DNA from: Abditibacteriota bacterium | GTDB lineage: Bacteria; Armatimonadota; UBA5829 | Direction: 5' to 3' | Assembly: GCA_017445025.1 (NCBI GenBank) | Contig: JAFSVJ010000009.1 | Location: forward strand, 1,536-65,535 | Length of the DNA: 64,000 nucleotides | In this document: positions 8,917 to 57,084 of the stretch, one piece after another | Numbering within the stretch: position 1 is the stretch's first letter | How the letters are laid out: each line of letters starts with the position of its first letter | Position numbers and translations under genes: made by a program | Notes under the pieces: generated by a model | What the model was told of the DNA's origin: nothing | Databases searched by the model: none | The model's input: the letters and a program-made list of their open reading frames with translations, nothing else

Positions 8917-9663
8917 TTATCTCTTGATAGGCCACATGTTAATGGGAGTTGTTGTTGCTTCAGGCTTCATAGCCTTTGCGTGACCGTCAGCGAATGTCCA
9001 GTTGTCCATACCGTTGTGGTATCCCTTCATAGCTTTACAAGCGGGGTCGTTAAGCTCACTTCTTTGGTTACCAAAGGCAAGTAAGTATGTTTGGTAAGGA
9101 TTAATTGGTGGGAAGCAGGTGTCACCGTAAGCTATGTAGTTAAGAGTTCCCCAACCGTATCTCCATGTTTCAGCAACAAGAATTGTTTCGGCAGGATTGG
9201 CAATTTCTGCGTTAGTAATAACAGCTTCGGAAGTATCTCCGTCAAGGATGAATTGACACATACCGGACTCTCTGAAAATGTATACGTTACCACAATAAGA
9301 GTTTCTTCCGATGTGACCGTTCTGTTGCATCCAAGCAGCGAAACCATCGTCAGAGGGACATTTGAAAATTGTGGAGTGGCTCCATGTTCCTGCTTGACCC
9401 TTGTTACCTGCGTAAGGTAAAACCTTAATGGCCCAACCGTTGTATCCGCTACCGTTGGATGGGGGATAGGTTTCGTCATAGTCGTCTACGTAGAGCATAG
9501 TTGCCGTTCCGATTTGTTTCATATTGGACAGACAGTTAGCAGCTCTTGCTTTCTCTCTTGCTTGGGCAAATACGGGGAATAGAATTGCAGCAAGAATGGC
9601 AATTATAGCAATAACTACCAACAATTCTATAAGGGTAAATCCTTTTTTGAACATTGTGTTCAC
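8917..9663 (-). CDS. DUF1559-type protein with prepilin-type N-terminal cleavage/methylation domain (H-X9-DG family)
   Basis: N-terminus [29 protein letters not shown] is a type IV pilin-like signal. The C-terminal FADGHAKAM block matches the DUF1559 H-X9-DG signature. This family is typical of Planctomycetes, Verrucomicrobia and Lentisphaerae. Confidence 0.8.
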
Positions 9664-9800: not shown

Positions 9801-9924
9801 ACAAAAAAAGTCAAGAGTAAAAAGCCCTTTTTTTTTTAAAATAATAAATTTTTTGTTTTTTTGGTTTGAGAAGAAAATCCTAATGAGGATAGGCTCTATA
9901 GCCTGCCATAAATATTAAAGGCAA

Positions 9925-9972: not shown

Positions 9973-10989
9973 TCATTGTTTTAAGTCCGGGAGAGTGCTT
10001 TCTCTCAAAACGATTTCCCCCTTTATTTGTTCATGGACCGGAGAAAAGACTTTTCCGTCAATCAAATTCAAAAGGATTTCCATTCCTCTTTTGGCTATAA
10101 GTTTTCCCGGTTGAGTCACGGAAGATAAGGTGGGAATAGTAAAATCACACATAATTGTATTATCATAACCCATTATTTCCACATCTTCCGGTATTCTGTA
10201 ACCCAATGAATTTAAACACCTCATCACTAACAAGGTATAAGCGTCAAACTGACCTAAAATTATCTCCGGTTTTTCTCTGTCCATATATTTTTTCAAAGCC
10301 ACCGGATCAATTTTACTTGAACGATAGCTGGCCTGATAGGACATTTCCTTTAAGCCATTATCTCTGATACAATCTTGATATCCCTTTAATCTTTCTCTTT
10401 GAGAAGGGTCCCAATCGGTGGCCCCCCAATGGACAAAACCTATTCTCTTTCTTCCGTGGTCAATCATATATTTAATTGTATCATAAACATTGTTATAGTT
10501 ATCAGTCGCTATAACATTTAATTCCGGAACGGGAATGTTTTGTTCAAGGACCACAAGAGGTTTTTTTCGACTAAACTCTACAAGATTTGAATAGATCTTT
10601 TCTTTTCGTTCTACAAAAGGGGTAACTATTAATCCGTCAACATATCTTTTCTTCATTATTTCAAGACATCTGTCTTCCTTTTCTGCCGACAGGTTAGACT
10701 CTCCCAAACAGACCACATACCCGGCATCCATAGCTATCTCTTCAACTTCACCTATAATATCCATAAATATACCGCCTAAATTAGGCACAACAACACCTAA
10801 ATTATAGGTTCTCCCCGTAACGAAGGTTTGAGCAATATAAGAAGGCTCATATCCCATTTCATTGGCAATTTTCTTTACTCGCTCTCTGGTTTGAGGAGAA
10901 ATATTACCGAAATTATTTAATGCTCTTTGGACTGTACCCACGGAAACATCCGCAGCCTTAGCTATATCTCTTATGGTCACTCTTTTCAT
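9973..10989 (-). CDS. LacI-family transcriptional regulator
   Basis: N-terminal HTH MKRVTIRDIAKAADVSVGTVQRALNN...TRERVKKIANEMGYEPS is the canonical LacI DNA-binding domain. It is followed by a periplasmic-binding-fold sugar domain. Confidence 0.9.
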   Translation of the reverse strand: MKRVTIRDIAKAADVSVGTVQRALNNFGNISPQTRERVKKIANEMGYEPSYIAQTFVTGRTYNLGVVVPNLGGIFMDIIGEVEEIAMDAGYVVCLGESNLSAEKEDRCLEIMKKRYVDGLIVTPFVERKEKIYSNLVEFSRKKPLVVLEQNIPVPELNVIATDNYNNVYDTIKYMIDHGRKRIGFVHWGATDWDPSQRERLKGYQDCIRDNGLKEMSYQASYRSSKIDPVALKKYMDREKPEIILGQFDAYTLLVMRCLNSLGYRIPEDVEIMGYDNTIMCDFTIPTLSSVTQPGKLIAKRGMEILLNLIDGKVFSPVHEQIKGEIVLRESTLPDLKQ

Positions 10990-21238: not shown

Positions 21239-21249
21239 GAGTTTTCATA

Positions 21250-24200: not shown

Positions 24201-25461
24201 TACAGATCGAAGTCAAAACGTTGCTGATTTAGTTGAACAATTTGGGAAACAATTAGTGAATAATACTAATTTAGCAATTAATTTAAAGGCATTACTTACA
24301 TTAGAGAAAGGTAAAGAAGCTATGGATACCTTTTTAGATACTTTTGAAGCAGGTTCTATAAAAACATTAGCTAAAGAAATTAGAGTAATTGATTATATTA
24401 AGGAAGTTCAAGAAACTATCAGTAAAGGTATAAAAGCATGGTTATGGAACGAAGAAGATGGTAAAAAAGAGTTAAGAAAATTAATTCTTGATTATAAGAT
24501 TATTGCTAAAAGTAATAATATTATTGATAGGACAAATTGTTTTTCTGATTGTATTGCTAAATGGAAAGAATTCTTTGAACATAATATTAAATTACCTTAT
24601 TCAATTGTTATGGTAGAATATAATGAATTATCTGATTTTTTTGATTGTATAAAAGAATCAATATCTTCTGCCATGAATATTATTAGTTATGAGAGTAGGC
24701 AAAAGTTTTTTGATGCAATATCTAATAATGAAAATACAATAATTAATATTAATGAAAGATGTAAAGAACTATTAAAAAATAAGTTTATAACATTTGTTAC
24801 TGATTTCTCTGATGATGATATAGAAAATTTATATATTAGTCTTTCTAATGATTCTTTTATAAAATCAGAATCAGAATTTTATCAAATTATTAAAAGAGAA
24901 GCTAATCTTATACAAAATCGTTTATTGAGAAACAAAATAGTATCCAAATGGAAAGAATTAACTAATACAGCATCTTCTAAAGAATGGTGTAATAAATACA
25001 GGTGTCCTATATTAATTATGATTGATGATGCTGAATTCAATGATGCTAAAGACCTATTTACTGTTTTGGATGAAAGTTTTAAATTTAATGATAGTATGTT
25101 ACAGAGAGTATTAGAGTTTATTGAAAAAAAACCTAAATTTATTTTTAAAATAAATAATAAAACAGAAATTGATAAAGTTTTTAGTAATAAAATGATTCGT
25201 GAATATCAAGTTATAATAGATGATGTAGAAGATCTAAAGAATAAACTATCTTCAATAGACTCAAATTATTATAATTGGTATGGCAATCAAGTTATAAATG
25301 ATGCTATTAGAGAGTTTGCTCAAGATAAATATCTTAATGGAGGCTTTGAAGAAATCAAAAATGATATTCAGGGAAAAACAGCAGATGAAGTTAAAAGCCT
25401 TTTATTAGATTTAATTTCAAATAATGTTGATGCAGGAATATTAGTAATAAAGAAAAGGTAG
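21250..25461 (+). CDS. brxC: Giant P-loop ATPase, BrxC/PglY-like
   Basis: 1403 aa with an N-terminal Walker A (GIWIEGSYGTGKSRV) near residue 60 and a long alpha-helical remainder. Size and architecture are typical of BrxC. RBS aggag. Confidence 0.6.
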   Translation: MKKYIDYFDIDPSYYPEINPDSIKDQKWYRTTPHKTFIDVLKQVERTLSRETTEACKGIWIEGSYGTGKSRVIWTIDNILTCSNEELSKYFNSYALLQQEKDLLNKINALKSGKILTVYKYKSGDIDNINKLIIKIYESVTKALKNNKFDYIGKDTIRGKIVSFLEEDEENRNIFAQLINKPKYKSLGSLNGKSVSEIIKILKNTNQNAEDLVNDIIKISDDNINLFSLDMDDLKSWISEVLSENKDKGLKAIVLLWDEFSAFFKKNKDSLDVFQSLAELSNNDPFYLIIATHESSSIVSPEEKASFKVISDRFNHFNIKMPNSTAFELIADAMDIKKTSKSEYEILTSELNDNMKKSREAVCRLNDKDIISEETMKRLCPIHPMTALLLKHISTFFASNQRSMFNFIKDNDSDKLKAFQWFINNYSPEDGQLLAVDFLWDFFYNYGTTDHSSFSGRANLDIIIANILDTYPREEKKLNNEQKRVLKAVLMMLAINKRLNNSVELLIPNDKNIKMVFEGDDNLEDKAVNIVKNFFVDNFKILYIDKDENNQDVYKVNMPGEEQEILKIKERLLQEVKTINILESGENSILSSISFPNKINIRYKFYYLTVDNFTKKLNKIAEEETKLFKAVLCFARNKNEQLIINNKIKEAIKDDIFKDIVFVDMSNNLLSDDKFNNFIDYSAREEYWRGKDDSLADEKKRNKEMILDDWANDINNGEYKVSNVKNAYAKDCNSFDSLKEALVEIVLKYYPLVFDNYKIAEPLFNSSDFNIGILCGLGISNKKGDKYYSVYQEKDIRMILGKLVDDDNYWITDKSHNISQIKIKLDEYIQNEFDRNNKVSIGDIFDFLMGLGFIYNNLYAYLTGFLLKGYSCRPYRYSIGLEGENGGEIDPNKLAEFVSEYMKFKQTGKNEPKIKYIQIMTDNQREFLSFINSSYGVDKDLSVEQAVIHLRNKLLSIGYPLWVYKTIDENGLSDYIDKLSNIVNTDRSQNVADLVEQFGKQLVNNTNLAINLKALLTLEKGKEAMDTFLDTFEAGSIKTLAKEIRVIDYIKEVQETISKGIKAWLWNEEDGKKELRKLILDYKIIAKSNNIIDRTNCFSDCIAKWKEFFEHNIKLPYSIVMVEYNELSDFFDCIKESISSAMNIISYESRQKFFDAISNNENTIININERCKELLKNKFITFVTDFSDDDIENLYISLSNDSFIKSESEFYQIIKREANLIQNRLLRNKIVSKWKELTNTASSKEWCNKYRCPILIMIDDAEFNDAKDLFTVLDESFKFNDSMLQRVLEFIEKKPKFIFKINNKTEIDKVFSNKMIREYQVIIDDVEDLKNKLSSIDSNYYNWYGNQVINDAIREFAQDKYLNGGFEEIKNDIQGKTADEVKSLLLDLISNNVDAGILVIKKR

Positions 25462-25465
25462 TATT

Positions 25466-27619
25466 ATGGAAGATTTTGAATCTGTTAAAATAAATATCGA
25501 TAATTATTTTTCTAGTAAAGAACCCTTCCCTTTCTTCCTTTCAATTAATGGGACTGAAGAATATAAAGAAGTATTAAACCAATATCCCGGTATACAAAAA
25601 ATATATATAAGTGATTATTGTAATGAAGATTCTTTTATTGATTCTGATAAATTAATTAATTATCTTTCTCAAAATAATAGTAAATGCTTATTATTGGGGT
25701 TGGGTGATTATATTAGTCTGTCTTATGATACTAATATTTTTGAAAGAATCAGTAATTTATGCATTAGTGGAAAACTATTAGTTTTGTGTAAAGGAATAAA
25801 AAACTTTATTAATAGTCAATCATCTATTGATGATAAATTTGATAACAGAAGGTATTATATAGTGAATTCCTCTTGTCATAATAATACTATTATTAAAGTT
25901 AAATTTGATATTGAGTATAATAATGCAATTTATGGTTTTAAACAATTACTTAAGAAAATGGAAAATTGTGACGATAGTAAATTTATAGTTAGAACTGAAT
26001 TGCATATAAAAAATGATTATGAGATAACTTCATATTATGATGCATTAAAGTATGAAAAAAAGATATCCAATATTACTGAAGATGTATTATCACAAGACCT
26101 ATGGAAAGAATTTTATAAGGATGAAAGACTTACCGATTATAAAATTAGCCATTGGAGGTTTTACTTAAAAGTATTATTGAACGGAACAAAGGATGAATAT
26201 TTATGTGAAGTTATTAAAAAATCCCCAAATTATGATACATATAAGCAGCAGATTTATAATTGTATTTTAGATATTGATTGTTCTGATAAAAGGTTTGATT
26301 TATTATATGAAAAAAGAAAAATATTGTTAAAAGACTTAAACAAGAATGCTCCAGAATTAGATGAATATTTGTTGAGAACGAAGGATAAGAGTAAAGATAG
26401 GGTTTATTATTTAACAGATAATACAGATAAAGAGAAATATGAAATTATTGAGGAAATATGTAAATTTAAAGAAATACCTAAAAATTTAATAAATATTTAT
26501 CCTGATTTAAATAAGTATCTTCAAAATTATAAATTTGAAACTACAGATAGTGAAATATATACAGAATATTTCAATCAATATAAAAAACAAAAACTTTTGA
26601 ATTATATTGAGCCAGAGTTTTTAAATAAAGTAATAGACTTAGCTAATAAAAGAATATACAATACACTTGAAACAAATTATTCTGTTATAGAAAAGTATAA
26701 AAATGGGAATAATTTTCTATATTGGATAGACGCTTTAGGAGTAGAATTTCTTGGTTATATTCAAAAAAAAGCTTATGATAAAGGATTAAATATAAATTTT
26801 ATAATTGCAAGGTGTATTTTACCTTCTCTGACTAGTTTAAATTCTTTTTTTTACAATGAATGGAAGGGAAAGAAAACTGCAAACAAAAATTTAGACAAAA
26901 ACAAGCATGAAGGTGATAATAGATTTAATTATTTAAATAAAAAGACTCCTATTCATTTAGTTGAAGAATTAAAAATAATATCAGAAGCGTTAGATTTTGC
27001 AAAAAGTGAATTAACACAGCATAATTTCGAAAAAGTAATTATTGCTTCAGATCATGGCTCTAGTCGATTGGCAGTAATTAATGAACAAGAGAATAAATGG
27101 GTAATGAAAACAAAAGGAGAACATTCTGGAAGATGTTGCCCTGTTGACGAATTATCTGAAAAACCTGAAGTTGCAACTAACGAAAATAATTATTATGTGT
27201 TGGCTAATTATGATAGATTTAAAGGTGGACGAAAAGCAAGTGTTGAAGTTCATGGTGGAGCTACACTTGAAGAGGTTTTGGTTCCTATTATTGAGATATC
27301 ATTATTGTCCGGTAATATAGATTTTCCGTTGGATTATGAACCGAAAATAATAAAGTGTGGACCAGAACATAAACCTGAAATAACATTATTTGTCCCCGTT
27401 AAGTCTAATAATGTAATACTTAGAATAAACAGTTATAATTACAATGCAACTCCAATTGATGATTCACACTATAAGGTTGTTTTAGATGATATAGTTAATA
27501 CCGGTGAGTATACAGCTGATGTTATTGTTGATAATAATATTAAAGGTTCAATAACATTTAAAACACAAAATATAATTGCTAGTTCAAATGATAGTGATTC
27601 TTTTTTTGAAGATTTTTAA
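25466..27619 (+). CDS. pglZ: PglZ-like alkaline-phosphatase-superfamily protein
   Basis: 717 aa. VIIASDHGSS and EVHGGATLEEVLVPII resemble the metal-ligand DHG and HGG motifs of the alkaline phosphatase/PglZ clan. Position directly after the BrxC-like gene fits BREX order. Confidence 0.5.
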   Translation: MEDFESVKINIDNYFSSKEPFPFFLSINGTEEYKEVLNQYPGIQKIYISDYCNEDSFIDSDKLINYLSQNNSKCLLLGLGDYISLSYDTNIFERISNLCISGKLLVLCKGIKNFINSQSSIDDKFDNRRYYIVNSSCHNNTIIKVKFDIEYNNAIYGFKQLLKKMENCDDSKFIVRTELHIKNDYEITSYYDALKYEKKISNITEDVLSQDLWKEFYKDERLTDYKISHWRFYLKVLLNGTKDEYLCEVIKKSPNYDTYKQQIYNCILDIDCSDKRFDLLYEKRKILLKDLNKNAPELDEYLLRTKDKSKDRVYYLTDNTDKEKYEIIEEICKFKEIPKNLINIYPDLNKYLQNYKFETTDSEIYTEYFNQYKKQKLLNYIEPEFLNKVIDLANKRIYNTLETNYSVIEKYKNGNNFLYWIDALGVEFLGYIQKKAYDKGLNINFIIARCILPSLTSLNSFFYNEWKGKKTANKNLDKNKHEGDNRFNYLNKKTPIHLVEELKIISEALDFAKSELTQHNFEKVIIASDHGSSRLAVINEQENKWVMKTKGEHSGRCCPVDELSEKPEVATNENNYYVLANYDRFKGGRKASVEVHGGATLEEVLVPIIEISLLSGNIDFPLDYEPKIIKCGPEHKPEITLFVPVKSNNVILRINSYNYNATPIDDSHYKVVLDDIVNTGEYTADVIVDNNIKGSITFKTQNIIASSNDSDSFFEDF

Positions 27620-27629
27620 GGATTAAAGT

Positions 27630-29093
27630 ATGATAGATAAGTTAAGAAAATATTTTGATGAAATGGTAGTATATAAAGATTTAAAGAATAGTAATTTCTT
27701 TTCTGCTTTGAGTTTACCTTCATTTACTCGTGATTGGCTATTAAAGCGATTTGAAAACAAAGAAGGTCAATTTGATATTGATAATTTAGCTGCATTTGTT
27801 AAGAAGAATATCCCAAAAAAAAATGATTGGACTGCAATTGAAAGTAGAATAGTTAAAGATTATGAAAGAGTAAAAATATTAGCTAAAATTTCTATTGATA
27901 TAGATATTAAAACAGGAGAAGTTTCTTTTTCTTTACCTGAATTTGGTTTGTCTTCTAAAAATACTATTATTGAAGATGATGTATATGATGAATTTAAAGA
28001 AGATTTAGTTAGCGGACATGAAGTTTGGGGTATGCTTGAATTAGGATATAGACAACCAAATGATACTGTTAAGCCTAAAATTCCTGGAAAAATAAAATTA
28101 ATTAAATTTAAAAACTTTTGTCCCTACAATATAAATGTAGATTATTATAAAAATGTTAGGTCTAAATTTACTATTGATGAATGGATAAATGTTCTTTTAG
28201 GAGCTATTGATTATAATGCAGATGGTTACAAAGATAATGAAGAAAAACTATCTATGCTTACAAGACTCTTACCATTCTGTGAAAAAAGATTAAATCTTAT
28301 AGAATTAGCTCCTAAAGGAACAGGTAAATCATATGTCTATGGTAGAATAAGTAGATTTGGTTGGCTTTCCAGTGGTGGTGTTATGAGCAGAGCTAAAATG
28401 TTCTATGACATTTCAAAAAGAGCAGAAGGTTTAGTTAGTGGAAATGATTTCATTACTCTTGATGAAGTGCAAACAATTTCTTTCACAGATATAGATGAAA
28501 TGAGAGCCGCATTAAAAGGTTATTTAGAGCAAGGTGTTTTTACTGTAGGTAATTATGAAGGATCAGCATCTTCGGGTGTCATTTTATGTGGTAATATATC
28601 CAAGAAAATAATGGATCAAGATGGAACAACTGATATGTTTAAAGAACTTCCAGATGTTTTCCACGAATCTGCTTTAATAGAACGTTTTCACGGGATAATT
28701 AGAGGTTGGAATATACCAAGAATGAATGATGATTTAAAAATATGTGGTTGGGCATTAAATTCTGAATACTTTTGTTCTATATTACACGAATTAAGAGAAG
28801 ATACAACATATCGAGTTGTTGTAGATAAGTTAATAGAGGTTCCTGAAGGGGCAGATACAAGAGATACTGAAGCTATTAAAAGAATTGTAACTGCTTACTT
28901 AAAACTTTTATTTCCGAATGTTAGACAGCCCGAAGATATTTCTCCTAGAGAATTTAAACAGTATTGTTTAAGACGTGCTAGAAATATGAGAGCCTTGATT
29001 AAATCTCAATTAGGAATTATTGATGAAGAATATAGAGGAAAAGATATTCCTAATTTAGTTGTTAATCCTCAATACTTAAATGATGATTTATAA
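27630..29093 (+). CDS. brxL: AAA-type ATPase, BrxL-like (Lon-related ATPase region; no protease Ser-Lys motif seen)
   Basis: 487 aa. Walker A LELAPKGTGKSYVY and Walker B FITLDEVQ. Position after the PglZ-like gene matches type 1 and type 4 BREX order. Confidence 0.45.
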   Translation: MIDKLRKYFDEMVVYKDLKNSNFFSALSLPSFTRDWLLKRFENKEGQFDIDNLAAFVKKNIPKKNDWTAIESRIVKDYERVKILAKISIDIDIKTGEVSFSLPEFGLSSKNTIIEDDVYDEFKEDLVSGHEVWGMLELGYRQPNDTVKPKIPGKIKLIKFKNFCPYNINVDYYKNVRSKFTIDEWINVLLGAIDYNADGYKDNEEKLSMLTRLLPFCEKRLNLIELAPKGTGKSYVYGRISRFGWLSSGGVMSRAKMFYDISKRAEGLVSGNDFITLDEVQTISFTDIDEMRAALKGYLEQGVFTVGNYEGSASSGVILCGNISKKIMDQDGTTDMFKELPDVFHESALIERFHGIIRGWNIPRMNDDLKICGWALNSEYFCSILHELREDTTYRVVVDKLIEVPEGADTRDTEAIKRIVTAYLKLLFPNVRQPEDISPREFKQYCLRRARNMRALIKSQLGIIDEEYRGKDIPNLVVNPQYLNDDL

Positions 29094-29106
29094 ATGGTAA
29101 TTAATA

Positions 29107-29307
29107 ATGAAAAAAGTTTACAATTGTTGTGCTTGTGGAAAAAGAAATTTAGAAAAAGATGAAATAGCGGTTTGTAAGAAAATGTTAGGTAGGAAAATAG
29201 AAAAGTTTTTCTGTTATGACTGTTTAGCAAATTATTTGGATTGTTCGGTTCAAGATATTTTAGATAAAATTGAAGAATTTAAAGCTCAAGGATGTAAACT
29301 GTTTTAA
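29107..29307 (+). CDS. Small zinc-ribbon protein
   Basis: 66 aa with CCACGK...C...CYDC Cys pairs. Lies between the BrxL-like and OLD-like genes in the same operon. Confidence 0.45.
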   Translation: MKKVYNCCACGKRNLEKDEIAVCKKMLGRKIEKFFCYDCLANYLDCSVQDILDKIEEFKAQGCKLF

Positions 29308-29322
29308 ATAACAACTAATAAT

Positions 29323-30945
29323 ATGATAGAAAAGATAAGAATTATTAATTTTAAAAAATTTAGAGACATTACTATAAATTTAAATGAAAATATTAACATT
29401 ATTGTTGGAAATAATGAAGAAGGTAAATCTACTATTTTGGAAGCTTTAAATTTAGCTCTTACAGGATTTTATCGAGGAAAGCCAATTAATAATGAATTAT
29501 CACAGTATTTGTTTAATAATGATGTTGTTATTGAATATCTTAAGTCATTACAAACAGAAAAAATAACAGATCTGCCATGTATTAAGATAGAAATATATTT
29601 TTCTACTGGAACAGCCCCTATTTTTGAAGGAAATAAAAATATAGATAATGAAGATAATGAAGGATTTACTTTTCATATAGGTTTTAATGAAGATTACAGA
29701 GAAGAATATGATTTTTATATTAGAAATAACCAAATAGACAATTTACCTATTGAATATTATGAAGTTTGGTGGGAAACTTTTGCTCGTGACAAAATCACTA
29801 CAAAAAAACTTCCTATTAAATCTTTTATGATTGATTCTTCAAATTATAAATATACAAATAGTTCCGATATTTATATATCAAGAATAGTTAATAACATTTT
29901 AGATAAAAAGGATATTCTATCTATTGCTCAATCACATAGACGTTTAAAATATAAATTCAGTGAAGAAGATTCCATAAAGAATATAAATTCTAAAATATCC
30001 AAAGATTTATTCATAAATGATGATATAATTAACTTAGGTGTAGAAGTAGATACTAAGAACGCTTGGCAAAATAGTTTGGTTGTTCAAGTTAATGATATTC
30101 CTTTTGAAAATATAGGAAAAGGAACGCAATGTATATTTAAGACAAAAATGTCATTACTAAAAAACAAAGATAATCAAAATTCTGTAATTTTAATTGAAGA
30201 GCCTGAAAATCATTTATCATATTCTAAATTAAATGAATTTATAAAAATTATTAAAGATATTAACATTGGCAAACAAATCATAATGACAACTCATAGTAGT
30301 TTTGTAGCCAATAAATTAGGATTAAACAATTTAATATTAATAAATGACAAAAATGTATTAAGAATAAGTAACGTTAAATCATTTGATTTCTTTAAGAAAA
30401 TTCCAGGATATGATACATTAAGATTTTTACTATCAAAGAGAGTAATTTTAGTAGAAGGGCCATCAGATGAATTAGTCGTTCAAAAAGCTTATATGATGCA
30501 TAATAATGGTAGAATACCTATTATGGATGGAATAGATGTTATTTCCGTAGGAACTGCTTTTTTAAGATATTTAGAATTAGCTATCAGACTAAATATTAAA
30601 GTGAGTGTTATGATTGATAATGACGGAAATATTAAAGCAATAGAAGAAAAATATAGTGATTATAAAGATAATAAGAATATAACTATATGCTATGATGAAG
30701 AAGTTAATGATAAAAAAGAATCATTAGGTGAAAGGTTTAATTATAATACATTAGAGCCTAATTTGTTGAAGGTTAATAGTATAGAAGTTTTTAATAAAAT
30801 ATTAAATATGTCCTTTATTACAGAAAAAGACTTATTACAATATATGAAGAATAATAAAACTGATGTTGCTTTAAAAATATTTGAAACAAAAGAAAACATT
30901 AATTTTCCTAATTATGTATTAAAGGCTATTAATAATGAAGAGTAA
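29323..30945 (+). CDS. OLD-family ATP-dependent nuclease (N-terminal ABC-type ATPase plus C-terminal Toprim), GajA-like
   Basis: Walker A IIVGNNEEGKSTILEAL. Walker B-like VILIEEPENHL. C-terminal Toprim ILVEGPSDELVVQ. Confidence 0.65.
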   Translation: MIEKIRIINFKKFRDITINLNENINIIVGNNEEGKSTILEALNLALTGFYRGKPINNELSQYLFNNDVVIEYLKSLQTEKITDLPCIKIEIYFSTGTAPIFEGNKNIDNEDNEGFTFHIGFNEDYREEYDFYIRNNQIDNLPIEYYEVWWETFARDKITTKKLPIKSFMIDSSNYKYTNSSDIYISRIVNNILDKKDILSIAQSHRRLKYKFSEEDSIKNINSKISKDLFINDDIINLGVEVDTKNAWQNSLVVQVNDIPFENIGKGTQCIFKTKMSLLKNKDNQNSVILIEEPENHLSYSKLNEFIKIIKDINIGKQIIMTTHSSFVANKLGLNNLILINDKNVLRISNVKSFDFFKKIPGYDTLRFLLSKRVILVEGPSDELVVQKAYMMHNNGRIPIMDGIDVISVGTAFLRYLELAIRLNIKVSVMIDNDGNIKAIEEKYSDYKDNKNITICYDEEVNDKKESLGERFNYNTLEPNLLKVNSIEVFNKILNMSFITEKDLLQYMKNNKTDVALKIFETKENINFPNYVLKAINNEE

Positions 30946-32032
30946 GCTAATAATGGCATGTGCCGGTTCCGGAAAAACTACTTATTTGATAGAACGAGCT
31001 TTAAAAATAAAGGACAAAAGCATATTAATTACTACATATACTAATTCTAATGAACAAGAGATAAAGAATAAATTTATAGATAGAATAGGTTATATCCCAA
31101 AAAATATAACTATCCAAACTTGGTTTTCATTCTTATTACAGCATTGGGTTAGACCTTATCAAAGTGTAATATATGATTGTGACATCAAAGGAATAGATAT
31201 TTCAGATAAAAAATCTACTAAATATGTAACAGAAAACAATGCTAAAGAATATTATTTTAATAGTAAAAATGAAATATATCGAGATAATCTCTCTAAATTT
31301 GCTTTTAAAGTAAATGAAAAAACTGAAGGAAAACTTATAGCCAGATTAGAAAAAATATATCAATATATTTTTATTGATGAAATTCAAGATTTGGCAGGAT
31401 ATGATTTAGATTTAATAAATGAAATAGTTAATTCTAGTATTTGGTTAATAATGGTTGGTGATAGAAGACAAACTGTTTATATTACACATTATGAAAAACG
31501 CAATGAAAAATATAGAGGAAAAATTGATGAATATGTGATAGATAAACTAACAAATAAAGTTTACATGGATGTAAAATCCTTATCTAATAGTTATAGATGT
31601 AATCAAAAAATATGCGATTTTGCTAATGATGTTTTTAAAGATTTGCAACCTATGAAATCGTCAAACAAACAAAAAACAGAACATGATGGTGTTTTTTTAG
31701 TTAGACCTTGTGATATAAATGATTATTTGATTAAGTTTAGTCCTGTTCAGCTACGATATAGCAAATCTATAAAGGTAAATATAAATTATAAAGCTTATAA
31801 TTTTGGTGAATCAAAAGGTTTAACTTTTGATAGAGTATTAATATATCTAACTAAAAATCAAACTGATTGGTTAAAAAATCATACTATAAAGTTAAAAGAG
31901 CCGGAAAAATTATATGTTGCTATTACAAGAGCTAAATATAGTGTTGCAATTGTATTTGATGAATTAGATAAATATCAACCAAAACATACAGAAGTGTATC
32001 CTTATAAAAGAGATTTATTTACACTTGATTAG
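30935..32032 (+). CDS. Compact UvrD/PcrA-like SF1 helicase, GajB-like
   Basis: Motif I ACAGSGKTT, Ia TYTNSNEQEI, II FIDEIQD, III MVGDRRQT, V GESKGLTFDRV, VI VAITRAKYSV. Overlaps the OLD-like gene by 11 nt. Confidence 0.6.
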   Translation: MKSKLIMACAGSGKTTYLIERALKIKDKSILITTYTNSNEQEIKNKFIDRIGYIPKNITIQTWFSFLLQHWVRPYQSVIYDCDIKGIDISDKKSTKYVTENNAKEYYFNSKNEIYRDNLSKFAFKVNEKTEGKLIARLEKIYQYIFIDEIQDLAGYDLDLINEIVNSSIWLIMVGDRRQTVYITHYEKRNEKYRGKIDEYVIDKLTNKVYMDVKSLSNSYRCNQKICDFANDVFKDLQPMKSSNKQKTEHDGVFLVRPCDINDYLIKFSPVQLRYSKSIKVNINYKAYNFGESKGLTFDRVLIYLTKNQTDWLKNHTIKLKEPEKLYVAITRAKYSVAIVFDELDKYQPKHTEVYPYKRDLFTLD

Positions 32033-32192
32033 TCTTTTACTAATTATTAATTTATAAAAGTGTATTTTTAATTGAGTACATTATGGCAAAAACGAATGAA
32101 TAAATATGTATATTTTTAAACCTTTAAATTAAATGGGTTAAAGATTTTATTCCAAAATGTATAATAATAATATTAAATGGAGAAATTTTAAG

Positions 32193-34730
32193 ATGAATAA
32201 GAAAGGTTTTAATTATGTTGAGTTATTGATAATACTTGCGATTATAGTAGTTGTATCTGCTGTTGTATATCCCGTTATTGGTGCAAATAGTAGGTTTGTT
32301 GAAGATGAAAGTGTAAGAGAAACTTGTATTGATAATGTTGCTAAAATAACTAAAGCACTTTTGATGTATATTGAAGATTGGGATAATACAACTCCGAGAT
32401 GTTACGGTCCCGGATCAGGTGCAACAATAGCTACCTTCGGTGCTAAATTAAACGACGGTCGTCCTAATGGTATAGGTTGTTTGTATGACTATGTGGCCGG
32501 TGAAGGTGCTTTTGATAGCTTTATAAATACAGGGAAAAACCCTGAAGTATTAAAATGTCCTAATGATGAAGTATGGAGTAATACAAATTGGTGTTGTTCT
32601 TACTTCTGTGGACCAAGTCCATATTGGTTTTGGGAAGGAGGAACAGACAATTGGGGTAAAGAAGGTGAATCCATATCAGAATATGAAAATCTTTCCACTT
32701 CTGCTGCTATAATTGAATCAAGACAATTTTTCTATTGGAGAAGTTGTGAAAAAAAAGGGCATAATTATACTACCCCTTGTGGATTTTTAGACGGACATGT
32801 AGAAGTATTTCCTGTTTTAACTCCGAAGCAGTTATATAGAGATCAAAATCAAGATTATGACTGGGAAATCACTGCCGGATGGGGCCCATGTGATGCTCAA
32901 GGTAATATTAGTTGGGGTGAAACAAGTGAATATTGGAATCCACAAATATATTATTATTTTTATTGGTCACATGATAATGATATTCAATGGGTACTATTAA
33001 ATGAAGAAAATATTACAATAGATCAAGGAAAAGCTTACACTGATCTATCTGTTTCTATTTTACCTGAAACTGCTTCTGATATTGATATTGAATTTACATG
33101 GTCTTCGAGTGATGAATCTGTTGCTACAGTAGATCAAAATGGTGTAATAAATGCTATAGGTGAGGGCAAAGCTATTATAACTGTTAAGGCTAAATATACA
33201 GATTATTATGGTAATTATAATAGAGAATTAACTGATGAATGTGAAGTGACAGTTATTCCACCGGAACCTACATCTATTACAATAGATAAAACAAGAATAA
33301 TGATTGTGGGTCAAACTTCTTCCATTACTGCTAATATTTTACCTGAAAATGCAAATCAAAGTGTTGTTTGGTCAACAAAAGATAAAAATATTGCTATTAT
33401 TTCAAACGGTAAAATTACGGCTGTAGGAGTGGGATCGGTTTATATCATAGCTTATACTTATGATAAAAAATTATATGCTAAATGCAAAGTAACGGTTCTT
33501 CCGGAACCCGAGTCTATAGTTCTTGATAAAACAAAAGAAACTGTTTGTATAGGAAAGACAATAGACTTAAACGCAACTGTTCTTCCTAAAAATACACTTC
33601 AAGATGTTGTATGGATATCTAAAGATAAATCTATTGCTACTGTATCAAACGGTAAAGTTAAAGGTGTAAAAGAAGGAATTGTTAAGATAAATGCATATAC
33701 TTATGATAAAAAGTTATATGCTTCCTGTAAGGTAACAGTTGTTCCTTATCCTGCGTCTATTACTCTTGACAAAAAAACAGAAACAGTATGTATTGGTAAA
33801 ACTGTAGACTTAAAGGCTACAATATTGCCTGCTAATGCGCCTCAAGATGTTGTATGGATATCTAAAGATAAATCTATTGCTACTGTATCAAACGGTAAAG
33901 TTAAAGGTGTAAAAGAAGGAACTGTTAAGATAAATGCATACACTTATGATAAAAAGTTATATGCTTCCAGTAAGGTGACAGTTGTTTCTTATCCTGAGTC
34001 TATTACTCTTGATAAAACTTCATCTTCTGTAGTTGTCGGAAAGAAAATAACATTGAAAGCAACTGTTTTACCTATCAATGCTCTTCAAACAGTTGTTTGG
34101 GTAAGTAAAGACAAATCTATTGCTACAGTATCAAACGGACAAGTTAAAGGTGTAAGTCCGGGGACTACTTATGTAAATGCATATATTTATGATAAAAAAC
34201 TTTATGCTAAATGTAAGGTGACAGTATATCCGGCACCTACGGAAGTGGTCTTGAATAAAACCTCTATGACCGTTTATGTTGGAAAGACAGGAACATTAAC
34301 AGCTTCTGTTTTGCCTGAGGGTGCTGTTCAAAGTGTCACCTTTGAATCCTCAGATACAAGCATAGCAACAGTTAATTCAAATGGTCTTGTTAAAGGATTA
34401 AAAGTAGGATCTACTACTGTCATAGTCAGAACAAAAGACAAATCCAAATACAAAAAGTGTAAAATAACCGTTAAGAATAAACCCGTCACGGGAGTATCAT
34501 TAAATAAGACATCTTTAACTTTGGCAGTGGGAAAGTCAACAACTCTGACTGCAACCATAAAACCTTCTGACGCAACCATTAAGACTGTCACTTGGACATC
34601 TTCAAACACCAAGGTTGCAAAGGTATCTTCTACCGGAAAGGTGACAGCTGTGGCCAAAGGCACCGCTACCATATCTGTCATAACAACTGACAGTTCTAAA
34701 AAAGCCACCTGTAAGGTGACAGTAAAGTAG
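32193..34730 (+). CDS. Prepilin-type N-terminal domain protein with about 8 tandem Big_2 (bacterial Ig-like) domains
   Basis: N-terminus MNKKGFNYVELLIILAIIVVV is a pilin-like cleavage/methylation motif. Repeated ...SSDESVATVDQNGVINAIGEGKAIITVKA...KVTV units. Start chosen at 32193 (RBS ggag). Confidence 0.7.
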   Translation: MNKKGFNYVELLIILAIIVVVSAVVYPVIGANSRFVEDESVRETCIDNVAKITKALLMYIEDWDNTTPRCYGPGSGATIATFGAKLNDGRPNGIGCLYDYVAGEGAFDSFINTGKNPEVLKCPNDEVWSNTNWCCSYFCGPSPYWFWEGGTDNWGKEGESISEYENLSTSAAIIESRQFFYWRSCEKKGHNYTTPCGFLDGHVEVFPVLTPKQLYRDQNQDYDWEITAGWGPCDAQGNISWGETSEYWNPQIYYYFYWSHDNDIQWVLLNEENITIDQGKAYTDLSVSILPETASDIDIEFTWSSSDESVATVDQNGVINAIGEGKAIITVKAKYTDYYGNYNRELTDECEVTVIPPEPTSITIDKTRIMIVGQTSSITANILPENANQSVVWSTKDKNIAIISNGKITAVGVGSVYIIAYTYDKKLYAKCKVTVLPEPESIVLDKTKETVCIGKTIDLNATVLPKNTLQDVVWISKDKSIATVSNGKVKGVKEGIVKINAYTYDKKLYASCKVTVVPYPASITLDKKTETVCIGKTVDLKATILPANAPQDVVWISKDKSIATVSNGKVKGVKEGTVKINAYTYDKKLYASSKVTVVSYPESITLDKTSSSVVVGKKITLKATVLPINALQTVVWVSKDKSIATVSNGQVKGVSPGTTYVNAYIYDKKLYAKCKVTVYPAPTEVVLNKTSMTVYVGKTGTLTASVLPEGAVQSVTFESSDTSIATVNSNGLVKGLKVGSTTVIVRTKDKSKYKKCKITVKNKPVTGVSLNKTSLTLAVGKSTTLTATIKPSDATIKTVTWTSSNTKVAKVSSTGKVTAVAKGTATISVITTDSSKKATCKVTVK
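33480..34230 (+). repeat. Intragenic tandem repeats, period of about 242 bp (Big_2 domain units), including 75-bp perfectly identical stretches
   Basis: gatgttgtatggatatctaaagataaatctattgctactgtatcaaacggtaaagttaaaggtgtaaaagaagga occurs identically at 33603-33677 and 33845-33919. Confidence 0.8.
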
Positions 34731-38844: not shown

Positions 38845-39270
38845 TTAATATTTTATTTTTTCTATATTTATCAATTCCTTTTTAATGTTAAGCCCGGAGC
38901 TGTAACCACCAATAGAATTAAACCCAACAACTCTGTGACAGGGGACTATTATGGGAATGGGATTCTTACCGCAAGCATTTCCTACAGCTCTCACAGCTTT
39001 TGAATTTTTTTTTTCAGCCAACTGCTTGTAAGTCAAAGTCTTTCCGTAAGGAATATTCATCATTTCTTTCCAAACTGACATTTGAAAATCTGTTCCCTTT
39101 AAATATAAAGGCAAATCAAATTCAAACAGTTGCCCGGCTAAATAAGCTTCCAATTGACTGTATGCCTTCATTAGCAACATACTATAATATTTATAAGTAT
39201 TTTTCTCAAAATACAAATTTGTTATTTTATTATTCTGTTCCTCTATCAGAATATTGTCAACTGTCAGCAT
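38845..39270 (-). CDS. ogt: Methylated-DNA-protein-cysteine methyltransferase
   Basis: VWKEMMNIPYGKTLTYKQLA...IIVPCHRVVG contains the PCHRV active site. Confidence 0.85.
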   Translation of the reverse strand: MLTVDNILIEEQNNKITNLYFEKNTYKYYSMLLMKAYSQLEAYLAGQLFEFDLPLYLKGTDFQMSVWKEMMNIPYGKTLTYKQLAEKKNSKAVRAVGNACGKNPIPIIVPCHRVVGFNSIGGYSSGLNIKKELINIEKIKY

Positions 39271-53258: not shown

Positions 53259-54335
53259 TTATTTAACCTTAATATAACTGTTTACCGGGACGGATTTCAC
53301 ATAACCATTTATTTCCATCATCATAAGAGTTGAAGTGATGTCCTTCATATCCATTCCGGATTTTTCTACAAGAGTATCAACGCTTATAGGATCAAACTCC
53401 AAAAGCTCGTAAAGAGTCATTTCCTTTTCGCTAAGCAAAAGATTTAAAGTGTTCTCTTCCGGAGTCAGAGGCAAATTTAATTCCAAAAGAATATCTTCCG
53501 CATCCTCCACCATCAAAGCACCGTCTTTTATGAGTTTTAGACAACCGGAAGACTTTTTCTCCGTAATGTTTCCCGGAATCGCATAGACACCTCGTCCCTG
53601 TTCTAAAGCACAATTAGCAGTAATGAGAGAACCGCTGTGAATAGGAGCTTGACAGACCAAAACTCCGTCACTCAAGCCGGAAATTAATCTGTTGCGGACA
53701 GGAAATCTAAAGGGTTGAGGTTGAGAACCTAAAGGAGCCTCACTGATTATGGCACCACCTTTTGAAATAATCTCATCATAAAGAGTTGCATTGGATGCGG
53801 GATAAGGCACATCTATCCCGCTACCCAAAACTGCCACAGTCTTACCTCCACAGTCAAGGGTAGTTCTATGGGCCACAGAGTCTATACCATAGGCACCACC
53901 GCTTACTATAACCAGTCCGTGACGAACTAAGCCCCGAGTCACCAATTCGCAGGCGGTTTTTCCGTAAAGGGTACAATTTCTGCTCCCCACCACTCCTATG
54001 AAAATATCGTCATCGGAAGGTATAGTGCCTCGAACATAAAGGATAACGGGAGGGTCATATATTTGGGTCAGCCTTTTGGGATAATTATCGTCCCAAAAAG
54101 ATATGAGATTAATACCAAGCTCTTCACACTTTGCCATATCGGAAGAGAGATCCGCATTTTTGTAAAAGTCAAAAGCTTGCGTTTCTTTGGTATTAAATTG
54201 AAAAGCGATTAAATCATTTTTATTTAAAGAAAAAAACTCTTCTGCCGAACCAAGATTTGAGCATATTGCCTGTTTTGCCTTAGGATTTAGCTCTATTCTG
54301 GCTATACGCAAAAGAGTTAATAAATTATCTTTCAT
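53259..54335 (-). CDS. dprA: DNA processing protein DprA/Smf
   Basis: GVVGSRNCTLYGKTACELVTRGL...VSGGAYGIDSVAHR...VLGSGID Rossmann-like DprA core. Confidence 0.88.
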   Translation of the reverse strand: MKDNLLTLLRIARIELNPKAKQAICSNLGSAEEFFSLNKNDLIAFQFNTKETQAFDFYKNADLSSDMAKCEELGINLISFWDDNYPKRLTQIYDPPVILYVRGTIPSDDDIFIGVVGSRNCTLYGKTACELVTRGLVRHGLVIVSGGAYGIDSVAHRTTLDCGGKTVAVLGSGIDVPYPASNATLYDEIISKGGAIISEAPLGSQPQPFRFPVRNRLISGLSDGVLVCQAPIHSGSLITANCALEQGRGVYAIPGNITEKKSSGCLKLIKDGALMVEDAEDILLELNLPLTPEENTLNLLLSEKEMTLYELLEFDPISVDTLVEKSGMDMKDITSTLMMMEINGYVKSVPVNSYIKVK

Positions 54336-54339
54336 ATAT

Positions 54340-56813
54340 TTACCATACAGGAGGTGCAGGTGGCTTTATTTCCTCATCACCTATATCATTATAAGGATTG
54401 CTTTTCTTTCTTTGCTTTGGAGTATCTTCCTTTATGATAACGTCCGGGTCGTAATCAACTATGTGATACTCACCGTTTTCGTCGTAATAACTCCCTCGCT
54501 TATCGGCAGGCATACCTTGGAAATCCTTATCTCCCGAATTATTGTTATCTTTATTGTTATTATTTAATTCAGATGAGGAATTGTTGTCACCTTGGGCATC
54601 GGAAAGGTCACCTACATTATTTTTTTTTTATCTCCTTGATTAACTCCTACAACTCCACCGGTTTTACCGGTAGAAGAAGCAACATTTGTGCCGGCTGAAC
54701 CCTCTTTAGAACCGGAAGAAGCTGACTTATCTAAAATTGAAACTACCCCGTTAATAAAATCAATGGGATCTATTTCAAGGAGTTTTCCTGTTTTAACATC
54801 AAAATAGGAACTGCCTGGAGCTTGTTCTTCCTTGTAAGCCACGGAAGCGTCTATCTTAAAGGACCACTTCTTGGTTAACACATTTCCTGCGTAGTCTTCA
54901 AGAGTAAACACACATTTCATATCGCCGTCAGGGAAGGGGTTAACGGTGGCTCCGTCCTTTTCGCCTCTAATATAACCATAGAAAGATTGGTTTACAGGGT
55001 CATAAATGAGATAAGGTATATATTCTTTTCCTTTTGCGTCTGTGGCAACTAAATTAGCTGTTCTAAATTTAATACCACTTCCTTTATCAAATACAAATAC
55101 CTTCACAAGAATGTCACCTACAGCGGAAACTGTCTTGTTTGTATCGTTAGAACCGGGGGCAAATTCAAAGGTGTAAGGCACTTGATTGTCCACTGTTATA
55201 AATGAGCGAACTCTGTAGTGTCCATCGTTGGTAATGTAGCCTAAGTAGCCGTTTCCGTAGAAAGGTTTAGACATAATCTCGCTGGGAACAAATTCTCTTG
55301 AAGGGTCGTTATAGAACTTATCAAGGTCTACATCATACATATCACCATTTTGAGTTAAAACATTAACATAGGTAATAGGTTTGGTTGTTCCGGTCATTCC
55401 CATTCCACCGGGGTTCATACCACCCGGGTTCATGGGATTCATACCACCACCGGGTCCCATACCGGGTCCCATTCCTGGGCCCATTCCGGGTCCCATACCG
55501 GGTCCCATACCACCGGGAGGAAAAGGTACTTGGGCAATTAACTTTTCGCCTTCAAAGGTTATGGATGATGAAAGGTAACTGTCCAAACTTTCGGTTCTTC
55601 TTCCAACAAAACCGGGACCGCCACCGAAGCCTCCGCCTCCGAAGCCGCCACGGCCACCTCTGCCACCTCTGCCACCTACAGCACCGCCGCCCATACCACC
55701 GGTGCCTCCACCGGTCATAACTTGTTGCTTAACGGTTATATCGTTGGTTGCAAGACCCGGAACTGATGTGGTAACACCACCGGCAGTATACATACCGGAT
55801 TCAAATTGCCATACAAGGTCCATGGTGCCTAAATCGTAGGTGGAAATGAGGCCTTCACCATCTTGGATAATTATGTTGTCATCACTTATGGCAACAAAAT
55901 TGCTAACCACATTGGGAGTTCTGAAAGGCTCGCCTTCTACAGTTAACTTGTTGTCAAGTTTTAGTTTGTAAATATTGGTATCAATACAAGCCACATAGAT
56001 GTTCTTTCCGTTAGTAATGGCTGATGTGGCTATAGGTGAAAACTTCTTTCTTGTAATTTCTTTTCCCGTTGAGAGCTTGTAAAGAATAACATGCTCCCCT
56101 GAGGTGAGAATGATATAGTCATCAAATATAACGGGACTGAAACCTTGAGATGTGGCGGGAATTGAGAGAGAATATTTTTGCTTTTCGGGCTTTGTAAGGT
56201 CGTGACAGATCAATTTGTTATCATAAGCGGTCACTACCAAATAATTGTCTTTGATGAGCAAGTTATTTTTGGCGGAAGAGCTTTTGTAAACAATGGGATT
56301 AGCTACTTCTTCACCTGTGGCAGGGTTAATTCTGTGAACTTTTTTGTCATCAAGAGCAATATACATAACACCATCATGAACCTTAAATATGGGGTTAAGA
56401 GTCTGCTCAATGTTCTTTCTCCACAGAATTTTACCGGTTAACTCGTCAAGACAGAAAAGAGTTTTGAGAGTGGTAAAGTAAACGTTACCATTATAACTGA
56501 TAGCTGTGGAAGTAATGCTTTCGTCAATGGCCTTGTCCTTTGGGTATTTCCAAAGTTCCATACCGGACTTATCGTAAGCATAGATTCTGTCAGCAGCCAC
56601 GAGAACGGCAACTTTATCCGTAATGATAGACTGAACATCACTGGAATGAATGAGCTCTACTTTTACGTCAAAAGCTTTCATAAAGGGCTTTGACAGGTCT
56701 TCATTATAGTAATAAGTTCCTGCATTATTTCCGCCTGAAAGGAAACCATCAGAATATGCAAAAGCACAGGTAACACAAACAAGCACCAAAATCAACAAAA
56801 ATTTGATTCTCAT
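54340..56813 (-). pseudogene. Secreted BamB-like (PQQ beta-propeller) protein with long Gly/Arg-rich and PGMG-repeat low-complexity linker; C-terminal region out of frame because of a T10 homopolymer (54620-54629)
   Basis: Signal peptide MRIKFLLILVLVCVTCAFA. The annotated frame stops at 54612 (..GDKKKIM*). The +1 frame continues stop-free for 96 codons to 54340, 5 bp before dprA. Confidence 0.6.
55425..55510 (-). repeat. 15-bp tandem repeat (ggtcccataccgggt-like, about 5 units) encoding (PGMG)n
   Basis: cccataccgggtcccattcctgggcccattccgggtcccataccgggtcccatacc lies within the Gly-rich protein gene. Confidence 0.75.
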
Positions 56814-57084
56814 ATAATATCCTCCAAAAAGAAGCTGACTTACACTTATACACTTATATTATAACACATTTAAAGATTTTTTACAATTTTAAATGCTATA
56901 AAAATATATATTTTATAAACTTTTTTAAAAAAAAGAGATTTTTGAGATATTTATGATTTATTTATCAAAAAAATGTATATCTTAAAAATCGGAAAAGAAA
57001 AAAGCACTCAAAGAGTGCTTTATATATGAGGTGTTCATCTCAAAATTTGTTAAACTGTTGCAGTGCATAAAGGGAGAGGGAGGC

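Follow-up and report, generated by a model that had tools for sequence, protein, structure and literature searches.

The gene for a secreted BamB-like protein on a contig of an Abditibacteriota bacterium (GenBank assembly GCA_017445025.1, contig JAFSVJ010000009.1) is interrupted close to its 3' end by a run of ten adenines, beyond which an open frame, shifted by one base, continues almost to the start of dprA. Considering that such an interruption may reflect a sequencing error, a switch operating on the DNA, or a site at which the expression machinery changes frame, the question raised by this locus is whether one gene here yields two proteins. In the current work, the locus was analyzed within a stretch of 64,000 nucleotides (nt) of that contig (positions 1,536 to 65,535, forward strand; hereafter the window, the coordinates of which are used unless another locus is named). 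The tract is most probably a conserved programmed slippage site acting at the RNA level, from which a major short and a minor long isoform would be produced.

The A10 tract and its two reading frames

The gene is located on the minus strand, on which the tract (A10, corresponding to T10 on the plus strand; 54620-54629) is read as GGA GAT AAA AAA AAA ATA ATG TAG. In the zero frame, the open reading frame (ORF; 54612..56813, minus strand) specifies the short isoform of 733 amino acids (aa), ending ...GVNQGDKKKIM at a TAG stop (54612-54614, minus strand) two codons past the run. These coordinates bear out the original prediction, made from the letters of the window, that the homopolymer truncates the ORF at GDKKKIM. 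The frame reached by one extra A, being the -1 frame, contains a tail ORF (54340..54627, minus strand) which adds 93 residues after the three lysines and closes at a TAA stop (54340-54342, minus strand); the extension of 96 codons that had been predicted is confirmed if KKK is included in the count. The product predicted from an A11 sequence is 824 aa long, with NNVGDLSDAQGDNNSSSELNNNNK as the junction peptide following ...GDKKK. On its 5' side the -1 frame is closed by a TAA overlapping the first bases of the run (GA-TAA-AAA), and therefore the tail frame can be entered only inside the run. Transcripts carrying A9 or A12 are predicted to terminate immediately, after KKK or KKKK, respectively.

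The likelihood of such an open frame arising by chance was estimated in several ways. Mononucleotide shuffling of the tail DNA left the frame open in 85 of 100,000 cases, while stops occur off-frame in 25 window genes at 0.08 and 0.13 per codon, from which the probability of 96 open codons is 3.5e-4 to 1.7e-6. An open stretch of this length is absent from the 12,939 positions inspected in each of the two off-frames (~26,000 in total). The chance of about 0.002 assigned originally is, if anything, conservative.

Conservation of the tail and of the interruption

In the tail, two conserved motifs accompany an Asn/Asp-rich linker. The first, DYDPDVI (54436..54456, minus strand; family pattern DY[DN]x[DE][VI][VI]), is present at every orthologous locus and always in the tail frame, and the second is the C-terminal PPAPPVW followed by TAA (54340..54363, minus strand; family pattern PPxPPx[W/F/Y]-COOH). 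In a six-frame scan of all fetched DNA, the two motifs were found together and in the same order only at these tails, with almost no background matches. In every lineage the tail frame continues without a stop from the recoding site to 3-4 nt before dprA, and the ratio of nonsynonymous to synonymous substitution rates (dN/dS) in this frame is 0.24-0.49 between strains and 0.14 between loci L003 and L004. The open frame, its motifs and its dN/dS together represent what is expected of a slippage site, that is, a conserved shifted-frame ORF under purifying selection.

Distant homologues were retrieved by a HMMER profile search of 1.8 billion representative proteins, and four of these carry the tail in one continuous ORF: P0006 (796 aa; ...GGYIPADYNPEVVVVV...LPPTPPSW), P0007 (ending ...GPPPNPPFAN), P0009 (ending ...GFPPFPPF) and P0026 (ending ...GFPPNPPFAF). 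The tail is therefore regarded as an ancestral part of the protein, which supports the earlier view that it belongs to the BamB-like polypeptide. The P0006 gene has the gene order found at the other loci (priA-gene-dprA-kdsB-cysE-cysS-vanW), and its linker is devoid of an A-run. A BLASTP comparison of the window tail with P0006 did not detect the similarity of the tails (E = 4.5); their homology is deduced from position, synteny and the two short motifs instead of from a significant pairwise score. The topology of a distance tree, (((window, L005),(L003, L004)), P0006) with P0007 and P0009 outside, implies that the interruption is a derived feature of one clade. A tail that is not translated would not stay open and conserved down to ~45-50% aa identity; hence it must be translated, which in these lineages requires recoding. 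On this comparative evidence, the tail is ancestral, is still under selection and can be reached only by recoding.

Only a handful of relatives are present in databases, all of them metagenomic and all with the gene directly upstream of dprA-kdsB-cysE. Scans of genome and metagenome contigs with the family alignment returned only distant PQQ propeller proteins and no orthologues, and a protein search with an alignment of the C-terminal domain gave zero matches although members are present in the database searched.

The exact A10 tract is also present at loci L001, L002, L003, L035, L036 and L004. Two further metagenome contigs, from ERZ28653721 and ERZ28019071, specify an identical 733-aa protein; they differ from the window by one base in 5.3-5.6 kb and are identical to it in A10 and tail. 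Of the three assemblies of this strain, two derive from MEGAHIT-style or other pipelines. In the species represented by L003 (712-aa protein), the sequence GAC GAA AAA AAA AAG TAG contains an A10 at the position homologous to that of the window, and the -1 frame runs for 73 codons to PPQPPVW and a stop, 4 nt before dprA. Six variants of the L003-type protein, including the one of 712 aa, all end in GDEKKK or GDEKKN, implying A10; the DNA was read for L003, L035 and L036, the A10 of the others being deduced from the protein ends. These three loci share ~95% nt identity with one another and differ by 89-97 substitutions across the gene, and the run is in each case exactly A10; in one L003-type variant a G-to-T change is located directly 3' of an otherwise exact A10. 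The L004 protein (671 aa; 70% aa identity to L003) has its A10 (GAA AAA AAA AAG GTG AAT TAA) ~45 codons further upstream, directly after the folded C-terminal domain, with a -1 frame of 108 codons ending PPPPPGW just ahead of dprA. Taken over the 10 sequences from three species, an exact A10 and the same need for a -1 shift are conserved, the run being always one base short and never one base long. Orthologues ending at the same lysines before a non-coding spacer would have spoken against the original prediction, and the comparison bears this out by half: the proteins indeed terminate at KKK, yet the stretch that follows is coding, being the conserved tail of the -1 frame. Such a pattern is the signature of programmed recoding, which the original prediction did not take into account.

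The 683-aa protein of L005 is encoded without an A-run and is instead interrupted by an in-frame TGA at about the position of the L004 run, followed by 139 in-frame codons ending PPYPPFY just ahead of dprA. An extension compatible with stop-codon readthrough is therefore found only in L005, that of the window being in the -1 frame. The use of TGA as a sense codon was rejected, considering that Trp is encoded by TGG at this locus and that the in-frame TGA is a single one (as a stop, TGA is rare in the window, terminating 3 of 40 genes), as was selenocysteine insertion, for which there is no evidence and for which a low-complexity linker would be the site. A perfect 8-bp hairpin (GGAACUGG-UUCUAACU-CCAGUUCC; L005 2066-2110) lies 9 nt past the TGA, and the 121-nt region folds better than shuffled sequences (z = -2.5); this hairpin could be a stimulator of readthrough or a by-product of repetitive Gly/Ser/Asn codons. 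Given that A10 is at homologous positions in the window and L003, further upstream in L004 and replaced by a TGA in L005, the break between body and tail has, as judged from these sequences, been kept or re-made within the clade while the tail was preserved.

Proposed slippage at the RNA level and its alternatives

According to the mechanism considered most probable, standard decoding of the tract would give the 733-aa protein as the major product, while a minority of expression events would gain one A-equivalent. The most likely route would be slippage of RNA polymerase on the 10-bp rA:dT hybrid, generating A11 transcripts, and an alternative or additional route would be a -1 slip of the ribosome on A_AAA_AAA (A_AAA_AAG in relatives). 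Shifted translation would add the 93 residues, being a disordered acidic tail ending PPxPPxW-COOH, to generate the 824-aa long isoform, and the ribosomes translating the tail would be the only ones coupled to the dprA start, which is located 4 nt past the tail stop and lacks a Shine-Dalgarno (SD) sequence. We infer the occurrence and level of slippage, the machine that slips and the binding role of the tail from the arrangement and conservation described above.

With its ten adenines, the tract reaches the length of about nine or more A/T at which transcriptional slippage is expected, and bacterial runs of 9 A/T are reported to slip efficiently (PMC1088944; PMC5009743). Zero-frame slippery heptamers of the kind used in -1 programmed ribosomal frameshifting (PRF) are present as well, being A_AAA_AAA in the window, A_AAA_AAG in L003, L036 and L004, and A_AAA_AAT in L035, and the transcriptional and ribosomal routes yield the same protein. 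The downstream RNA, where a stimulatory fold for PRF would be located, folds no better than shuffled sequences (z = -0.35, -0.82, -1.04) and its folding is not conserved, local folds upstream and downstream of the run being inconsistent between loci; no Rfam element was detected at the site. An SD-like stimulator at ~10 nt upstream is likewise not present: a GGAG occurs 2-3 nt upstream of the run in the window and L003, where it corresponds to conserved Gly-Asp codons, and none is found in L004. The lack of a conserved stimulator fits slippage driven by run length, a reasoning also used for Citrobacter rodentium tssM1. Transcriptional slippage is therefore favoured, with ribosomal slippage, or the sliding of ribosomes on poly-A that is outlined in PMC4363877, as a possible contributor.

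The closest analogue of the proposed site is tssM1 of C. rodentium (and tssM of Yersinia pseudotuberculosis). In tssM1, an A11 tract before a stop gives rise to transcripts with 10-15 A's and to ~20% full-length protein, as demonstrated by electrospray ionization mass spectrometry of cDNA and by reporters, and both isoforms are required (PMC4256274). As in that case, an A run precedes a premature stop in the 3' part of a gene for an envelope protein, one non-templated A restores the frame and adds an ancestral C-terminal part, the short form would be major and the long form minor, and neither an SD sequence nor an RNA structure is found nearby. Unlike the experimentally established tssM1 system with its A11, the window case is known from sequence and involves A10 and a different protein; its added part, instead of being a folded domain, is a disordered tail of 93 aa, and conservation of the site extends to species that share 45-50% aa identity.

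The tau and gamma products of dnaX are generated by -1 PRF at A_AAA_AAG in Escherichia coli and by transcriptional slippage at A9 in Thermus thermophilus (PMC1088944; PMC5009743). The window gene resembles dnaX in that one gene would give two variants of different C-terminal length, in that lineages use different recoding routes (here A10 at two positions and a TGA) and in that A_AAA_AAG is in frame in L003 and L004. It differs in that the recoded product of dnaX is the shorter one, and in that the upstream SD sequence and downstream hairpin of E. coli dnaX have no conserved counterpart here. In Shigella mxiE and spa13 (PMC5009743, PMC1088944), slippage also gives a longer, C-terminally extended product and influences the downstream gene, the latter being proposed for the window as well; those sites are T/A9 runs with experimental support, in regulators and components of a type III secretion system that belong to an unrelated family. 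The poly(A) frameshifts of the endosymbionts Buchnera and Blochmannia, as outlined in PMC5009743 and PMC3017870, are similarly long-kept and have a downstream frame still under selection. They are viewed as tolerated decay at many sites of reduced genomes, rescued by polymerase infidelity, whereas here a single site is found in the 64-kb window of a free-living-type genome and the break is kept or re-made.

Several observations weigh against slippage of this kind. A conserved stimulator was found for neither mechanism; an 8-bp hairpin (GUUUCCGG...CCGGAGAC), the end of which is 1 nt 5' of A10 at the L003-type loci (GTTTCCGG / CCGGAGAC; L003 4801-4828, L035 8483-8510, L036 3592-3619), and which recalls the slippage-stimulating nascent-RNA hairpin of Roseiflexus IS630 (PMC5009743), has no counterpart at that position in the window or L004. 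An in-frame A10 is also present in an ogt/MGMT-like gene (39005-39014, GCT GAA AAA AAA AAT TCA; ORF 38845..39270, minus strand) and an in-frame A9 in brxL (27815-27823), and slippage at a high rate would be costly in either; it must be either modest at A10 in this organism or tolerated. AT-rich genomes may in addition suppress slippage at such runs (Baranov et al., PMC1088944), and the long form could be very rare. The TGA of L005 derives from a single contig and could have arisen by simple nonsense mutation. Every sequence is, moreover, a consensus of short metagenome reads, in which minority tract lengths are hidden, and the argument for slippage is built on comparing sequences. Long A runs are accordingly tolerated in ordinary genes of this organism (A10 in the ogt/MGMT-like gene, A9 in brxL), an observation that bears on the efficiency of slippage.

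Among the alternatives, the one that survives best, while being unlikely, is phase variation at the DNA level, in which replication slippage would convert A10, with the tail off, to A11 or A8, with the tail on, and back again, giving heritably different subpopulations. A 10-nt homopolymer inside the ORF of a secreted, possibly surface-exposed protein is a classical substrate for such switching, a change in its length would switch the product, the tract must mutate at some rate, and minority alleles would be invisible in consensus assemblies. Tracts of this kind, however, normally vary in length among strains, whereas no length variant was detected at the assembly level in 10 assemblies of three species and the run is exactly A10 in all 10 sequences despite 5% to >25% nt divergence around it. 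The predicted A8, A9, A11 and A12 products of these genes are, moreover, absent from a collection of ~15 billion proteins. The phase-variable tract suggested by the original prediction is thus conceivable but disfavoured. On such runs, slippage at the DNA level is typically rarer, by orders of magnitude, than at the RNA level, which likewise counts against phase variation.

There is a slim chance that the primary role of the site is regulatory, throttling dprA (and kdsB and cysE) because only frameshifted ribosomes would reach its start, with the long protein as a by-product; this role and RNA-level slippage are compatible and not mutually exclusive. The dprA gene (53259..54335, minus strand) starts with an ATG at 54335, and in all six lineages its start is located 3-4 nt past the tail stop (window 54333-54345; L003 5061-5067; L004 3131-3137; L005 2488-2494; L037 12389-12397) and lacks an SD-like sequence, as the Pro codons upstream are C-rich. 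The 4-nt gap of the window (ATAT) essentially agrees with the 5 bp given by the original prediction and bears out its view that a one-A join gives tight packing against dprA. No terminator-like site was found on the minus strand between the gene and dprA, and in Shigella, slippage within spa13 and mxiE has a strong effect on the adjoining downstream gene (PMC5009743). Translation of the tail may accordingly, as a hypothesis, deliver ribosomes to dprA by translational coupling. Weighed against a purely regulatory role are the commonness of initiation without an SD sequence in this organism (a clear SD is present in 17 of 40 window genes) and the conserved aa motifs and dN/dS <1 of the tail, which would be needless for spacing or coupling. 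At L037, dprA probably starts 13 codons before the called position (12434), since translation from the ATG at 12395 yields the conserved N-terminus MDSNNLKLLRISR.

An even slimmer chance is attributed to the tail being a separate small gene (57 aa from an ATG at 54513) or an untranslated relic, with the A10 incidental. Gene callers do give this 57-aa ORF in the window and one of 53 aa in L003 and L036, and GG codons upstream resemble weak SD sequences, but no such ORF is called in L004 or L005, and in all lineages the frame is open from the recoding site, ~20 to >80 codons upstream of any candidate start. The secreted proteins P0006, P0007 and P0009 have the tail as their C-terminus, whereas as a product of its own it would be a free cytoplasmic peptide without a signal peptide; in a relic, stops would have built up over divergence to ~50% aa identity. 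A homopolymer sequencing or assembly error in a genome truly carrying A11 and a continuous ORF, being the other option of the original prediction, is effectively excluded, since homopolymers are error-prone on some platforms but the same A10 is found in three independent assemblies of the strain, in six strains of a second species and in a third species, and an in-frame A10 elsewhere in the window was correctly read.

Beyond the slippage site itself, we tentatively propose a clade-wide two-isoform system, which we hold to be possible though somewhat short of an even chance. In this system the break between the BamB-like body and the ancestral PPxPPxW tail would be deliberately kept, in one clade of uncultured Gram-negative bacteria, by three solutions, namely an A10 run at the first of two sites, an A10 run at the second, and a leaky UGA, such that only a set small fraction of the molecules would carry a docking tail and only that fraction of ribosomes would reach the competence gene dprA.

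The encoded protein, its surroundings and significance

The protein is composed, in order, of a signal peptide, an 8-bladed propeller, a disordered Gly/Met/Arg-rich linker, an all-beta domain, a Ser/Gly/Asn linker and the tail. The signal peptide has a site of the signal peptidase I type, the N-termini ending FAY/S, FAA/S or VYA/S. The propeller matches Pfam PQQ_2 (48.6 bits; cut-off 27.6), and the AlphaFold2 model of P0006, confident for residues 46-340, has BamB structures as its top Foldseek matches (~15% identity, E ~1e-15, template-modelling score normalized to the target of 0.6-0.7). The window protein shares with BamB this PQQ-type beta-propeller fold, whereas BamB is a lipoprotein with a single domain of ~390 aa. 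No lipobox is conserved across the orthologues, and the window protein lacks one, is twice as long (733-824 aa) and additionally contains the tail, an all-beta domain and linkers rich in Gly; its likeness to BamB is one of fold only. The DYAGN-containing part of the all-beta C-terminal domain recurs in giant repeat proteins. The Gly/Met/Arg/Pro-rich linker (55389-55718, minus strand; GGRGGRGGRGG... and five GMGP repeats) has a local GC content of 53-57%, the window as a whole being at 33%; such a linker is unusual in secreted proteins of bacteria and swamps word-based protein searches.

The tail is predicted to be disordered, the AlphaFold model of P0006 showing no structure in this part (predicted local distance difference test score of ~25). 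Its acidic stretch, polyproline segment and terminal aromatic residue suggest that it may serve as a short linear docking motif. A sorting signal of the sortase or PEP-CTERM type was rejected, as no transmembrane segment follows the motif.

Upstream of the gene, a promoter-like site is located at 56858..56886 (minus strand; TTGTAA-17-TATAAT with TG), being a match to the consensus only. Elsewhere in the window, an intergenic T10 (A10 on the minus strand; 9828-9837) is located downstream of a GC-rich hairpin (GTGGGGCTTTGCCCCAC, followed by TTTT); hairpin and T10 are upstream of the ORF 8917..9663, and the hairpin is probably the terminator of the ORF 9973..10989. A defence island on the plus strand (18887-32032) comprises a BREX system followed directly by Gabija. 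The BREX genes give strong PADLOC matches to BrxP (18887-21238), BrxC/PglY (21250-25461), PglZ (25466-27619) and BrxL (27630-29093), and those of Gabija encode GajA (29323-30945) and GajB (30935-32032), all on the plus strand. The large ORFs flanking the island, 17013-18887 and 32157-34730, gave no matches.

If the proposed slippage is real, a single gene with two products would account for both the 733-aa protein of the annotation and the 'hypothetical 57-aa ORF', and automated annotation would be wrong for this gene in every assembly. A well-conserved poly-A slippage site of chromosomal origin, that is, belonging neither to an insertion sequence nor to a phage, would then join those of tssM, mxiE, spa13 and Thermus dnaX. 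For the curation of metagenomes, the corresponding rule would be that an A10 frameshift which recurs in orthologues represents recoding and is not to be 'corrected'. The pattern would also be unusual in that one and the same break is retained or newly made, at differing sites and also through a stop codon, which argues for selection on the ratio of the short to the long form. Should the more tentative two-isoform system hold for the whole clade, this family would provide a natural case in which recoding sites turn over while isoform stoichiometry is under selection, resembling dnaX but in an envelope protein.

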